Source: Dictyostelium discoideum (taxonomy: Eukaryota). From it: 64,000 nt of DNA. The notes under the pieces were generated by a model that saw only the letters and a list, made by a program, of their open reading frames with translations, searched no databases and was not told where the DNA came from. This document shows, piece after piece, positions 3,902 to 60,116 of this stretch (the stretch's first letter is position 1; every line of letters starts with the position of its first letter). Where the stretch lies: the NCBI GenBank assembly GCA_000004695.1, contig CM000151.3:5536001-5600000 (forward strand), written 5' to 3'. A program made the translations under genes and the position numbers.

Positions 3902-4594
3902 AATAAATAAATAAACTCTTCTAGTAATGGTTAATTTAAATTTTTAATAGTAAAATTAACCATTTTAAAATATTCTTTTATTTTTATGAAAAGATTTTCA
4001 AAAAAAAAAAAAAATTTTATTTTTTAAACATTGAAATAAAAACAGGTTAACAAATTTTACATATTTCAATTATTTAATTAATTATTTTTACAATTCCACA
4101 TTAGGAAATAAAATTTTACTCTAATTTTTTATTTTAAAAGTTAAGTTCTTTTTTTAAACACTCTACAATTTTGTAAAAAATAAAATTTTTTTATTTTAAC
4201 ACTATTCCCCCAATATCGTGGTTTAAATTAAATATTAATAAAATCTAAATTAATTGAGCAATAATTATCATTTTTAAAAAAATAAAAAAAAAATAATTTT
4301 AATAATATTAAAAAATTCTTTTCATATTACTATAATTAAATAAAAAAAATAAAAAGTCCACAATCAAAATTTGAAAACATCAATTAAACAATATTTTTTT
4401 TAAGTTTTTTTAAATAAGATTTAATAGATGTGGGTTCAAAATGGAAATTCATAATTTTACTAAACAAAATGTCAAAAAACAGTTTTAAATAATAGATATT
4501 TTTAAAAAATTAATGTTTATGAAATAGTAATGTTATAATTTTATCTAGTGTTAATGTTTTTTTTTTTTTTTTTTGAATAAAAAAAATAAAAATC

Positions 4595-52036: not shown

Positions 52037-52891
52037 TTATTGAGTTAAATTTTCACGACATGGGCAACAACCAAAGGGTTTTTCACCTGGTTTACAATAT
52101 TTAATATCCATTGTGCACATAGCTTTAGAACAATCTGGAACTTTGGTTTCTTGAGGTGTGCAAGGACAACAACCAGTTGGAAGTTCACCATTTTTACAAT
52201 ATCTAATGTCCATTGTACACATTACATCAGAACAATCTGGTTTTTTAGTTGGTTGAGGTGTACATGGACAACAACCAGTTGGAAGTTCACCTTCTTTACA
52301 GTATTTCAAAATCTTTGGACATGGAACTCTTGAACAATCTGGTTTTTTAGTTGGTTGAGGTGTACATGGACAACAACCAGTTGGAAGTTCACCTTCTTGG
52401 CAATATTTTAAAATCTTTGGACATGGAACTTTTGAACAATCTGGTTTTTTAGTTGGTTGAGGTGTACATGGACAACAACCAGTTGGAACTTCACCATCTT
52501 TACAATATTTGATTTGAAGAGTACATGCGACACCTGTACATGGTTCACAACGACCACAACAAGAATCGGTCATGTTTAATCTATAATATGGTTTACATAC
52601 TGGTCTAGCACATTTAACAAGGGAGCAATCTGGTTTGGTTGGTGGGAGAGTACATGGACAACAACCGGTTGGAACTTCACCATCTTGACAATATTTGACT
52701 TGAAGAGTACATGCAACATCGGTACAAGGTTCACAACGACCACAACAAGAATCGGTCATGTTTAATCTATAATGAGGTTTACATATTGGTTGGGCACATC
52801 TAACGAGGGAGCAATCAACATTAACTTCACTTTTAACTGATAGTACCAAACAACTTGATAGAATTAATAATAGTATTAGTTTATTTAACAT
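52037..52891 (-). CDS. secreted cysteine-rich tandem-repeat protein (284 aa) with a signal peptide and ~7 copies of a ~33-aa PDCSxVxC...YCxxGE(L/V)PTGCCPCTPQPTKK module
   Basis: The signal peptide is MLNKLILLLILSSCLVLSVKS. The repeats are nearly identical at the DNA level (~99-bp unit, 52130-52560). The ATG is genuine (52889-52891). Confidence 0.7.
   Translation of the reverse strand: MLNKLILLLILSSCLVLSVKSEVNVDCSLVRCAQPICKPHYRLNMTDSCCGRCEPCTDVACTLQVKYCQDGEVPTGCCPCTLPPTKPDCSLVKCARPVCKPYYRLNMTDSCCGRCEPCTGVACTLQIKYCKDGEVPTGCCPCTPQPTKKPDCSKVPCPKILKYCQEGELPTGCCPCTPQPTKKPDCSRVPCPKILKYCKEGELPTGCCPCTPQPTKKPDCSDVMCTMDIRYCKNGELPTGCCPCTPQETKVPDCSKAMCTMDIKYCKPGEKPFGCCPCRENLTQ
52130..52560. repeat. ~99-bp coding tandem repeat array (4-5 near-identical units) inside the Cys-rich secreted protein gene
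   Basis: The block ggacaacaaccagttggaagttcacc...ggttgaggtgtacatggacaacaacc recurs with >90% identity. Confidence 0.7.
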
Positions 52892-54466: not shown

Positions 54467-57400
54467 TTATTGAAGTAAATTTAATTTTAATTTTTTACTA
54501 TCAAATGATTTTTCTAAATTAAAAACTTGATCAAATTCACTTTGGACACTAATATCATGATCGATTACAACTACAGAATCTTTTTCTTGTAAATTTCTAA
54601 GAAGATCACAAATGATTGGTTTAACGGAAGAATCTAAATGGTTTGTGAGTTCATCGATGATAATTGTTGTTATTCTTGAACCTGAATGGTTGAAAACCAC
54701 TTCACTTAGAGCAAAAGGGCTATAAGATAATTCTACACAACGTCTTTGACCACCACTTAATTGATAAAATGATCTTGGTACTAATGTACCATCCTTTGAA
54801 GATAATTCAAATACTTCTAAAGATAACTCCTCTTGATTATCGATTGAGAGTTTTGTAAATAATTTACCCTTTGATAATATTGAAAGGAATTGATTTGCAT
54901 AGGTTTCAACTTGTTCAATTACATTTAACAATACCATCAATGGTAAACCACTAGCACTGAAACCTGTCTCCCAGAATTGGTAATTCAATAATTGAGATTG
55001 AACATCTTTAAATAAAGATTCATTCAATTCAATTGAATTCATTAGTTTTTCAATATTTTGTTGTTTCTCTTTAATCTTTTCATTAAATGGATTTAAAGAT
55101 TGTTCCAATTGTAAAATTTGATTTTTTCTATTACCAATTGAGTCTTTTAAATAACCTAAATTAATTTCAATCTTTGAATAATCTTGAATTTGTTTATTTA
55201 AAAATTGTAATTCAATTTGTTTATCTTTTAACTCTAATTGAATCTTTAATTTCCTTTCATCAATTAATTTCTTTTCATTTTCAAATTCAATTTTCAATTG
55301 ATTTTCTTTATTTTCAAATTCTTTAATTTCATTTTGAAATTTTTCAGATTTAATTTTTAAATTTTCAATTTTATCTTTAATATTATTAGTTTCATTTTCA
55401 TCATTATTATTAATTAAAGTTTGACCACATTGACTACATTTATTCTCAATTAAATGCTTATTTAAATGGTTAATTGTATCTGTTAAATTTTTAAATTCAA
55501 ATTGATTTTGTTTAATTCCATATTTTAAATTTGTTAAATTTTCATTAAATTTAATTGATAATCTAGTTGAATCACGTTGAATTATTTCCTTTTCATTTTC
55601 TAATGATCTAATTAATTTTTGAATTTCATTAATTTTATCTTTTGTAATATTTAAATTATTATTTTCTTTATTATCTTCATGATTATAGATAATTAAAGTA
55701 TTATTTAAATTTTGAAAATTAATTAAATCTTTTTCTAATTGTTGATTTAAAATTGATAAATTTGTTGATTTTTCATTTAACCAATCTAAAGATTGTTTTT
55801 GAAAATCAATTGACGACCAAGTTGATAATGAAGATTTTTCATTTGAAATTAATTTTTCAAGATTATCTAATTCTGATTTTTTCTTTTTTCTCAATTCTTT
55901 TGATAATTTTGCAGCAGGTATACAAGTACCTAATGAAAATATACGTGATAATAATTCTTTTCTACGTTTATCAGTATCAGTTACAAAATTTGAAATTGAA
56001 CCTTGACCTAAATAAATACTCATTCTAAAGCAATCATAATCTAAACCGATTATATTGTTAATCAATGACTGTTGATCTAAAACACCCTGTTTAAAATTAT
56101 CATTATCCTCATCTAAACCATTGATAACAATTTTTGAACCGGATTTCCTAGTTTTGGATCTCACGATTTCAATAGATTTACAATCATCAATTAATAATTC
56201 AACTTTAACAGATGCCTGTTTAGATTGATCATTTATAACCTCATCACCTTTAATACTTGAACTTGAAGTTGACTGTTTCTTTGGAGAAGTATTACCATAT
56301 AAACACCACACCAATGCTTCGAATATTGTTGATTTACCAGACCCCATTTCACCTCTAATCATAATCATTCTATTTATCATCTCTTGTTGATCAACATCCA
56401 TTGATAAATTTAATTCTAATTCACCACCTAATCCACAAAAATCTTTAATTGTAATCTTTTGAATTTTAACTTTTCTACCCATAGGTACAATGGTTGGCTC
56501 ATTCACCATTGATAATATCTCTTTACCTAAATATAATAATTTCTTTTTCGATTCATTTTCTTCAACTAAAAAATTTCTTTCAATTTGTTGATCAATATAA
56601 TTTTCTAAAAAATCTTCCAATTTAAATTTAATTGGTGTTATTGTCGTTGTTGTTGTTATTTTATTATCATTTAAATTTTCATTTGTTTTAAAAAGTTGTT
56701 TTTTTATTGAATTTTCATTGATCATAACTCTTCTTAAATCAATGAATGGTGGTAAAGAATTAATTGAATCAATATAATCTTTTGATTTCATATTATCTAA
56801 AGTTGATTGAACTTCAACAATATCTTTTGATTTAACTAATGAAGTTTTACTTGACTCAAATGGAAAATATAATTTATGATGACGTGGTAAATCATTGAAA
56901 TCAATAAATCTTGGTTTAATTTCATTTGAATCAACAAATGCAACGCCATGTGGATCATTCATCTCTCCAAAATTTTGTTCATATGGACTGCCAATATACC
57001 AAAAATTATTTGAAATTTGTTGACGTTTATGATAATGTCCTAAATAACATGATCTAATATTATTACTACTACTACTATTATTATTATTTTCATTATTATT
57101 TTCAATTATTAAATCTTCAATTTGAAATTTACCATGTGATTTATAACCACCATTTGAAATCGCACCTTTAATTTCGGCATGTGCAAAAACAGTCCATTTA
57201 TTATGAATTGATGAATCAATATTTGGTTTAATAGTTGATAAATTTGTAAATAATTGTTTTTGTTCTTCTTTTTGTTCTCTCCATGGTAAATATGCAAAAC
57301 CATTATCATAATCAATGATTGGATCAGTTGCAACTTTAAAATTTGGAAATAGGGAAAACATTTGAATAGCATGTACACTACCATCAATAGAAACTTGATC

Positions 57401-57683
57401 ATGATTACCTGGTATGAATATGGTTTCAATATTACATCTCTTCCATTGTTCAAATTCTTTTAATAATTGATCAATATGTCTAACATGAAGTATATTACGT
57501 TGATGCCAAAAATCACCTAAAAATATAACTGGTGTTGGTCCAATATTACTATCAATATTACCATTATTATTATTATTAATTGATTCTAAACAACTTAATT
57601 CTCTAACTTTTTTTAAAACGTCAATAGTTCTATCTAATGATTTTGATGATACATGTAAATCTGTAAATAATAATCTTTTCCAA

Positions 57684-57726
<43 letters not shown>

Positions 57727-57823
57727 CTCTACTATTAGTATTACTAAAACCCCTTTTTATTTCATTTTCTATTCTTCTTAGATTAATTTTATTATTTTTT
57801 ATTAATAAATTATTAATCATCAT
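54467..57823 (-). CDS. single-polypeptide fusion of an Mre11/SbcD-type metallophosphoesterase (N-terminal ~330 aa) and a Rad50/SbcC-type ABC ATPase with a long coiled coil (C-terminal ~750 aa), 1118 aa
   Basis: Phosphoesterase motifs occur in order: LLFTDLHVS (D-x-H), IFLGDFWHQRN (GD-x-x-H), IFIPGNHDQ (GNHD), FAHAEIKG (H), CYLGHYHKRQ (GH-x-H). The ATPase head has a Walker A IRGEMGSGKSTIFEALVWCLYG. A ~450-aa heptad-rich coiled coil follows. The tail has the ABC signature QLSGGQRR, Walker B TIIIDELTNHLD and H-loop VVIDHD. Uninterrupted ORF. The ATG is genuine (57821-57823, MM...). Confidence 0.7.
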
Positions 57824-58154: not shown

Positions 58155-58499
58155 TTATAAATCGTCAATTGTGAATATTAAAAATAATTCTTCACTATTT
58201 TTTTTTTCTAAAAATTTCTTTTGTTTTTGTTGAACTATATTTTTTGAAGATGATCTTTTAAGTGGTGAATTCATTTGTTTGGAATTTGATAATTCATTTG
58301 TTACATATCTCTTTTCGTTACCAATTATATTATTATTGCTATTAATATTTTCATTTTTAATTGTATTATAAATATTTATATGGGTTGGGTATTGTTGTTG
58401 TTGTTGTTGTTGTTGCTGTTGTTGTTGATTTTTATTACATTGAATTTTTTCATTTATTTTGTCATGGCTTTTAATTTTAAAATTTAATAGGAATGTCAT
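58155..58499 (-). CDS. small hypothetical protein (114 aa) with a short poly-Q
   Basis: ORF from a genuine ATG (58497-58499), basic and Ser-rich. Confidence 0.3.
   Translation of the reverse strand: MTFLLNFKIKSHDKINEKIQCNKNQQQQQQQQQQQQYPTHINIYNTIKNENINSNNNIIGNEKRYVTNELSNSKQMNSPLKRSSSKNIVQQKQKKFLEKKNSEELFLIFTIDDL

Positions 58500-59267: not shown

Positions 59268-60116
<849 letters not shown>

Follow-up and report, generated by a model that had tools for sequence, protein, structure and literature searches.

A fused Mre11-Rad50 gene of Dictyostelium discoideum with tailed-phage relatives and a putative mitochondrial presequence

Mre11 and Rad50, like their bacterial counterparts SbcD and SbcC, are canonically encoded by two genes. 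We analyzed a stretch of 64,000 nucleotides of Dictyostelium discoideum DNA (GenBank assembly GCA_000004695.1, contig CM000151.3, positions 5,536,001 to 5,600,000; hereafter the window, numbered from its first letter) in which a single open reading frame (ORF) encodes both, with an N-terminal Mre11/SbcD phosphoesterase followed by a complete Rad50/SbcC split ABC ATPase in one polypeptide. The ORF runs without interruption for 1118 codons on the minus strand, from position 57823 down to 54467. The gene has about 22 % GC and contains poly-N tracts; the window itself is AT-rich, at 13-29 % GC per 2 kb, and the genes on either side are ordinary nuclear genes, encoding an Nramp protein, a ZNF598-like protein, a TCP-1 chaperonin, a nitronate monooxygenase and a PH-domain protein. 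The window gene is in all likelihood the published D. discoideum fusion Q8T663. Its product shares 96 % identity with two proteins from D. discoideum strains, a figure that refers to those two proteins and not to Q8T663 directly, and the differences are confined to the poly-N tracts and the coiled coil. The parts of the gene are as follows (aa, amino acids).

54467..57823 (-), fused Mre11/SbcD-Rad50/SbcC gene: single-exon ORF, 1118 aa, stop codon at 54467-54469
57683..57823 (-), aa 1-47: N-terminal extension, presumed mitochondrial presequence (MMINNLLIKNNKINLRRIENEIKRGF, followed by S...), with an R-x-F-S (R-3) motif at aa 24-27 and then a poly-N tract
56834..57682 (-), aa 48-330: Mre11/SbcD-type calcineurin-like phosphodiesterase domain, from motifs, profiles and fold
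56474..56833 (-), aa 331-450: putative capping-like region, linker and two helices, from AlphaFold2 secondary structure, assigned by position and by analogy with PMC3175470
55934..56473 (-), aa 451-630: Rad50/SbcC head N-lobe, with Walker A GEMGSGKST at 491-499 (K497) and Q-loop Q607
54962..55933 (-), aa 631-954: antiparallel coiled coil, its two arms about 163 and 146 residues long (AlphaFold2 helices 631-793 and 809-954)
55427..55438 (-), aa 796-799: CxxC zinc hook CSQC (C796, C799) at the coil apex, from conservation and matches to hook structures
54470..54961 (-), aa 955-1118: Rad50/SbcC head C-lobe, with signature LSGGQ at 1022-1026, Walker B IIIDE at 1054-1058 (D1057/E1058), D-loop LTNHLD and H-loop DHD at 1088-1090 (H1089)

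The protein is a true Mre11/SbcD and Rad50/SbcC in one chain, with its catalytic motifs intact. In the nuclease half, which falls under the calcineurin-like phosphoesterases (COG0420), motif I reads FTDLH (D55, H57), motif II GDFWH (G103, D104, H107), motif III GNHD (aa 139-142; N140, H141), motif IV is H215 and motif V reads GHYH (aa 262-265; H263, H265). We measured conservation in a 63-sequence family alignment, made of the window protein and 62 relatives, and in a 54-sequence alignment (A1). The metal ligands D55/H57, D104/H107, N140/H141, H215 and H263/H265 are 95-100 % conserved in the family; across both halves, all motif positions are 82-100 % conserved in the larger alignment and most are invariant in the smaller one. 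An earlier reading made from the letters alone (the sequence-only reading) had proposed a fusion in one uninterrupted ORF, with phosphoesterase motifs N-terminal to a complete split ABC ATPase. The ORF, the motifs, every one of which is present as named, and the profile and fold matches given below bear this out.

Profiles and structure identify the nuclease half in three ways. The PHROG SbcD-like family phrog_100 matches the window protein at 6.4e-23, the family profile finds Thermotoga maritima Mre11 in the PDB at 1.9e-8, and Foldseek places the N-terminal domain of the AlphaFold2 model (mean predicted local distance difference test score, pLDDT, of 81) on T. maritima Mre11 4nzv_B (E 2.6e-11, template modelling score 0.64). 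Pfam Metallophos (PF00149) gave no match at E<1 from the window sequence alone and is recorded for most orthologues; the poly-N inserts of the D. discoideum protein may depress its score. The Pfam search suggested in the sequence-only reading thus recovers, on this single sequence, only the ATPase N-lobe (AAA_23, 4.8e-19), and it is PHROG, the family profile and the fold that recover the nuclease. Mn-dependent exo- and endonuclease activity would be expected of this half, by analogy with its homologues. Behind the phosphodiesterase domain the AlphaFold2 model has a beta/alpha subdomain (aa 331-383), a low-confidence poly-T linker (aa 384-403) and two helices (aa 404-417 and 423-439) that end about 11 residues before the ATPase head. 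We infer that these helices occupy the position of the helix-loop-helix Rad50-binding domain of Mre11.

The ATPase half is recognized more readily. NCBIfam returns the TIGR model sbcc at 2e-20 together with several Rad50 models, the PHROG SbcC-like family matches at 3.8e-64, and a sequence search of the PDB finds Rad50 at 1e-13 and SbcC at 5e-9, with a second stretch of Rad50 3aux covering the C-lobe. Searched with the family profile, the PDB yields SbcC at 1.4e-22 and Rad50 at 6e-22, and the best structural matches of the AlphaFold2 model in Foldseek are Rad50/SbcC heads. The coil that separates the two head lobes totals about 325 aa, shorter than the approximately 450 aa estimated from the letters, and is 16 % identical to that of the phage relatives described below, as is typical of coil. 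The sequence-only reading had also seen no zinc-hook CxxC in the coil and took this as a distinction from true Rad50; this point has to be withdrawn. C796-S-Q-C799 sits between the two helical arms, its cysteines are 98 % conserved among the relatives in the 63-sequence alignment and invariant in the other, and the corresponding region of the family profile matches the Rad50 hook structures 1l8d (6.8e-6) and 6zff (3.8e-6). An aligned CxxC is retained by all fused phage relatives (49/49) and all unfused ones (12/12), and by 13/15 of those from plants or algae. By these comparisons CSQC is the zinc hook, with zinc binding predicted.

The sequence-only reading had asked whether the fusion is conserved in other dictyostelids. 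Full-length orthologues were found in eight dictyostelid sequences, and beyond them in Acanthamoeba castellanii (XP_004338016) and Stenamoeba stenopodia. When the word-indexed search was repeated with the family profile, it recovered the same sequences and no further eukaryotes. The Cavenderia fasciculata orthologue has a single intron of 55 nucleotides (GTATGT...TTAG; 4139-4193 of locus L033, GL883029.1), and the Heterostelium orthologue (L034) a single intron of about 100 nucleotides inside the N-terminal extension, after aa 37. The GC content of about 22 %, the poly-N insertions in D. discoideum and the introns in Cavenderia and Heterostelium are those of a eukaryotic gene; on these features, the gene is fully domesticated in amoebae.

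Two gene models extend beyond the ORF. Upstream of the fusion ORF lies an intergenic poly-A/poly-T spacer of 330 nucleotides and, as its direct upstream neighbor, a 114-aa ORF (58155-58499, minus strand) that starts MTFLLNFKIKSHDK and is conserved in D. firmibasis. The public annotation of D. firmibasis (P0003, 1183 aa) splices this small ORF onto the fusion orthologue. We considered such an upstream exon and rejected it: the upstream ORF in the window ends in a stop and is followed by the spacer, and distant orthologues start like the window ORF. Because of this stop and spacer, the D. firmibasis model is a probable misjoin and 58155-58499 a separate small gene. The other model, the dictyostelid-like EukProt entry P0010 (1906 aa), has BRCA2 domains (PF09169, PF09103) joined to a fusion orthologue. 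It is probably a misjoin of neighboring genes and, if so, a BRCA2 homologue adjoins the fusion gene in that species.

After the Amoebozoa, the next-closest proteins are about 50 metagenomic clusters, likewise fused and 958-1137 aa long, which align over about 95 % of the query at 28-35 % identity. Full-length identity to the closest fused phage genes is 30-39 %. Identity between the window protein and these fused relatives is 44 % in the nuclease, 39.5 % in the head N-lobe and 43.6 % in the head C-lobe, and the Acanthamoeba orthologue is up to 39 % identical to fused phage proteins over more than 1030 aa. When 1.84 billion representatives were scanned exhaustively with HMMER, the family stood apart, at more than 1000 bits against at most 390 bits for all other SbcC/Rad50-like proteins, and the scan added nothing beyond more phage-like representatives.

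The contigs that carry the fused genes (L001, L002 and L009-L019, from metagenomic collections and IMG/VR) are complete or near-complete at 100-110 kb, mostly with 59-69 % GC (51 % at one locus), and their genes lie on the same strand with overlapping stops and starts. Around the fused gene the order is conserved and reads PolA - x - x - UvsX/RecA - small ORF - fused SbcDC - x - x - RuvC, PolA being a family A DNA polymerase. The contigs also encode a DnaB-like helicase, SSB, Dam methylase, thymidylate synthase, a sigma factor, a terminase large subunit and CobT/AAA_5. A transfer RNA scan of six of the phage loci found none. By sequence content, these contigs are from uncultured tailed phages. 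The cultured phages in INPHARED hold no fused close homologue, their best matches being two-gene nucleases of Herelleviridae at 23-29 % identity; the PolA of the metagenomic fusion phages is at most 28 % identical to that of any cultured phage, and therefore the donor lineage would have no cultured representative. Among 185,579 prokaryotic species genomes (GTDB representatives) only 3 loci were found, two of them on contigs of about 2 kb from one metagenome-assembled genome, and therefore this is not a bacterial chromosomal family. Those two fragments are binned with a Sandaracinaceae metagenome-assembled genome.

More distant viral contigs (L020-L032 and L008; 38-66 % GC, up to 150 kb) encode nuclease and ATPase in the same order as two adjacent and often overlapping ORFs, of about 330-350 aa and 650-690 aa, and all have the CxxC hook. 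Thus both the operon and the fused state exist in phages, and the two-ORF arrangement is likely to represent the state before fusion. We also asked of the neighboring phage RecA whether it had been transferred to amoebae together with the fusion, and rejected this: its relatives are all metagenomic phage proteins.

Neighbor-joining trees with 100 bootstraps, a distance-based method only, were built from 936 columns and from 547 catalytic columns. The support values are as follows.

Amoebozoa plus fused phage genes, excluding unfused phage genes and plant/algal fusions: 100 % (936 columns), 100 % (547 catalytic columns)
Amoebozoa monophyletic: 87 % (936 columns), 80 % (547 catalytic columns)
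Fused phage genes alone monophyletic: 29 % (936 columns), 18 % (547 catalytic columns)

Because these are distance trees only, the exact branching is provisional. As far as these comparisons go, the fusion gene is not derived from the canonical eukaryotic MRE11/RAD50 pair, and its nearest relatives are phage proteins. The simplest reading would be that a phage gene, fused beforehand, entered an early amoebozoan in one transfer, both the direction and the singleness of the event being what we infer. Mre11/Rad50 fusions of plants and algae form a separate group, much more distant from the amoebozoan and fused phage genes, in which most members keep the CxxC hook. This group (P0064-P0078) takes in Sphagnum, Calypogeia, Diphasiastrum, Trebouxia, Symbiochloris, Chlorella, Galdieria and metagenomic relatives.

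The amoebozoan proteins begin with an extension that the conserved enzyme core lacks. In the window protein it is modelled as disordered, with pLDDT below 50 for aa 1-43, and in all nine amoebozoan species 36-65 residues precede the conserved W-[KR]-x-[LIV]-x-F-x-D-L-H. The extensions are not conserved in sequence and share a common composition, with 2.6 D/E, 12.8 R/K and 23.7 S/T per 100 residues; phage N-termini are shorter, lysine- and arginine-rich and more acidic. The motif R-x-[FYL]-[SAT] is the R-3 motif of the mitochondrial processing peptidase. It occurs in 6/9 of the species against 1.2 expected by shuffling, which, the species being related, is not a clean probability, and in 3/49 phage N-termini. 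Its forms are RGFS in D. discoideum and RSYS, RSFS, RPYS, RNYS and RRLT in other species. In Cavenderia the single intron separates the extension precisely from the enzyme, whose first conserved residue follows it directly; such an exon boundary is what one would predict had a targeting peptide been joined to a transferred gene. The assessment uses heuristic features, the composition being shared by nine species and the motif by six, and on these features the enzyme is probably imported into mitochondria, where it would act on mitochondrial DNA. Mitochondrial proteome papers for Dictyostelium (PMC9118663, bioRxiv 2026.09.28.755154) and Acanthamoeba (PMC13632651, PMC4500093) gave no hit within the text available, a result that carries no weight either way. 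The full-length plant and algal fusions also have transit-peptide-like N-terminal extensions, of 60-170 aa; in the literature searched, the localization of these proteins appears unstudied.

Taken together, the best explanation is a catalytically intact single-chain Mre11-Rad50 enzyme that descended from a fused tailed-phage gene, gained a presequence and most probably works in mitochondria; we put the probability of this reading at roughly 55 %. Judging from the family, two chains would dimerize through their nuclease domains and, on ATP binding, through their Rad50 heads, with short arms of about 150 residues each joined by the zinc hook and with helices 404-439 gripping the base of the Rad50 coil as the Mre11 helix-loop-helix does. 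The dimer would clamp DNA ends or hairpins, and the Mn-dependent phosphodiesterase would cut them into ends that a RecA-type recombinase can use. In phages, the fusion sits within a module for recombination-dependent replication (PolA ... UvsX/RecA - fusion - RuvC), a gene order that speaks for end resection feeding that replication, as with T4 gp46/47. An early amoebozoan would have captured the fused gene once, from a tailed-phage lineage with genomes of 100-110 kb, and after the transfer the gene would have gained its N-terminal presequence and its product come to work on ends, breaks or hairpins of mitochondrial DNA. D. discoideum mitochondria reportedly contain a RecA homologue, which would need an end-processing activity. 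There is a wider version of this proposal, which we hold to be slightly less likely than not: that in Amoebozoa the phage-captured enzyme resects ends and opens hairpins when mitochondrial DNA recombines or undergoes recombination-dependent replication, and that plants and algae have independently arrived at the same solution with another fused lineage.

Several observations weigh against the mitochondrial, phage-derived enzyme proposed here. The distribution in Amoebozoa looks patchy, being limited to Dictyostelia, Acanthamoeba and Stenamoeba. The placement of the Amoebozoa within the fused phage clade, as opposed to next to it, has weak support, in trees based on distances only. The D. discoideum presequence, which contains the acidic residues E19, E21 and D33, is a less typical one than its counterparts in other species, the motif statistic counts related species as independent, and part of the extension could be ancestral because the phage proteins too have short basic N-termini. 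Finally, the RecA gene next to the phage fusion did not come along, so that the recombinase partner presumed in the amoeba was not supplied by this route.

The same phage-derived enzyme might instead act in the nucleus, as a second Mre11-Rad50 complex for hairpins, for palindromes such as the palindromic extrachromosomal ribosomal DNA, or for breaks in a repeat-rich genome. SbcCD-type enzymes are known to cleave hairpins, the PHROG name is 'palindrome specific endonuclease', and specialization is likely since D. discoideum keeps a separate canonical pair. Processing of palindromes or hairpins, which the sequence-only reading had entertained, is indeed a plausible activity by analogy with any SbcCD-type enzyme; it is the N-terminal extension that leads us to favor mitochondria over the repeat-rich nuclear genome as its place. 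The extensions are acid-poor and rich in S/T with an R-3 motif of the processing-peptidase type, and lack a K/R cluster like a classical nuclear localization signal. Moreover, the gene is also found in Acanthamoeba and Stenamoeba, so a nuclear role would not be specific to the peculiarities of the Dictyostelium genome, and we regard nuclear action as rather unlikely. Genome defense, another function raised from the letters, fares worse. Amoebae host giant viruses, as is well established, and a nuclease against viruses or foreign DNA in the manner of the Lamassu or Wadjet SMC systems would fit the match of the PADLOC LmuB model (1.9e-26 over aa 451-1101) and the presence of JetC and LmuB among many SMC-type Foldseek matches. 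However, the LmuB similarity is of a generic SMC/Rad50 kind, covers the ATPase half only and is far weaker than the SbcC-like match, while the nuclease half is of Mre11/SbcD type; the closest relatives lie in replication-recombination modules of phages, not in defense islands; and no partner genes of any defense system adjoin the fusion gene. We consider a defense role improbable.

There is, lastly, the possibility of an artefact: the sequence might be a bacterial or phage contaminant, the product of a misjoined gene model, or a relic in decay. The window sequence alone has no Pfam Metallophos match, and among the orthologue models that of D. firmibasis takes in the upstream ORF and one from EukProt attaches BRCA2 domains to the protein. 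Against this stand an uninterrupted ORF with about 22 % GC and poly-N tracts among nuclear genes, the 96 % identity between D. discoideum strains with differences limited to repeats and coil, the conservation of every catalytic residue across the sampled Amoebozoa and the spliceosomal introns of the orthologues. These observations refute the artefact, to which we attach hardly any credence.

Two further ORFs of the window, neither with a Pfam match, lie close by. A 284-aa ORF at 52037-52891 (-) begins much like a signal peptide and carries about six cysteine-rich repeats in tandem (…CCGRCEPC… / …GELPTGCCPCTPQPTKKPDCS…), and its product looks like a secreted or extracellular-matrix repeat protein. 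The other, a 282-aa ORF at 59268-60116 (+), contains a run of more than 60 asparagines.

Fusions of Mre11 and Rad50 were described by Yoshida, Claverie and Ogata (2011; Virol J 8:427, PMC3175470), starting from Mimivirus R555. The novelty implied in the sequence-only reading therefore does not hold, since their thirteen cases already include D. discoideum Q8T663 along with Polysphondylium pallidum D3AVR3; among the others are Physcomitrella, Micromonas, Phaeodactylum, plasmids of Clostridium kluyveri and Deferribacter, and Bacillus phage 0305phi8-36. Canonical D. discoideum Mre11 (XP_629462) and Rad50 (XP_628997) are listed there beside the fusion, so that its status as an extra copy stands. 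The fused forms were placed outside the canonical Mre11/Rad50 clades, and viruses were proposed to create and spread them (PMC3175470). Papers citing this work in the literature searched concern giant viruses or viral metagenomics and none of them the amoebozoan protein. The same literature yielded no subsequent study of the amoebozoan fusion or of organellar SbcCD. The present analysis adds the sister family of fused phage genes with its unfused cousins, the Acanthamoeba and Stenamoeba orthologues, the conserved hook and the presequence-like extension.

With these additions, the 2011 hypothesis that a viral operon becomes a fusion and that this eases lateral transfer acquires a specific donor lineage, in which phage genes occur fused as well as unfused. 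A whole two-subunit DNA repair machine would have moved from phage to eukaryote as one gene and been kept in dictyostelids and discosean amoebae. If the presequence is real, the enzyme is a candidate for the missing end-processing nuclease of mitochondrial recombination, in a genetically tractable model; if the wider proposal is true, fused Mre11-Rad50 enzymes are a recurrent virus-derived component of organelle genome maintenance. A compact single-chain enzyme of this kind is also attractive for structural work.

Compared with the fusions of the 2011 paper, the window protein has the same architecture, with N-terminal nuclease, C-terminal ATPase and a short linker after the putative helix-loop-helix, and it too coexists with a canonical pair; in that paper, however, the slime-mould proteins stood without close relatives, localization was not discussed and no function was tested. 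The SbcCD-like nucleases of phages (T4 gp46/gp47, Herelleviridae recombination exonuclease A/B, PHROG 77 and 100) share with it the modules, the gene order and the UvsX/RecA neighborhood, which in T4 supports recombination-dependent replication (PMC3175470). Those of cultured phages are two separate proteins, with 23-29 % identity, whereas fusion is shared by the window gene and the uncultured phage genes closest to it. With E. coli SbcCD and archaeal or bacterial Mre11-Rad50 (6s6v, 7yzp, 3qg5, 3av0, 5dny) it has in common the fold, the catalytic motifs, a CxxC-hooked coil and the expected ATP-dependent clamp-and-cut action; unlike them, it is one chain, has shorter coils of about 150 residues per arm, is only 11-17 % identical in structural alignments and is nuclear-encoded. 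Eukaryotic MRN/MRX has homologous catalytic domains and a hook, but the window protein is not its orthologue, lacks any Nbs1-related feature and has much shorter coils. Mitochondrial DNA machinery of phage ancestry, namely the T7-like mitochondrial RNA polymerase, the Twinkle helicase and the family A organellar polymerases, is widespread in eukaryotes. If its localization holds, the fusion would be another nuclear-encoded component of phage ancestry at the service of the organelle genome, differing from these in being restricted to Amoebozoa and in having an organellar role that is putative.

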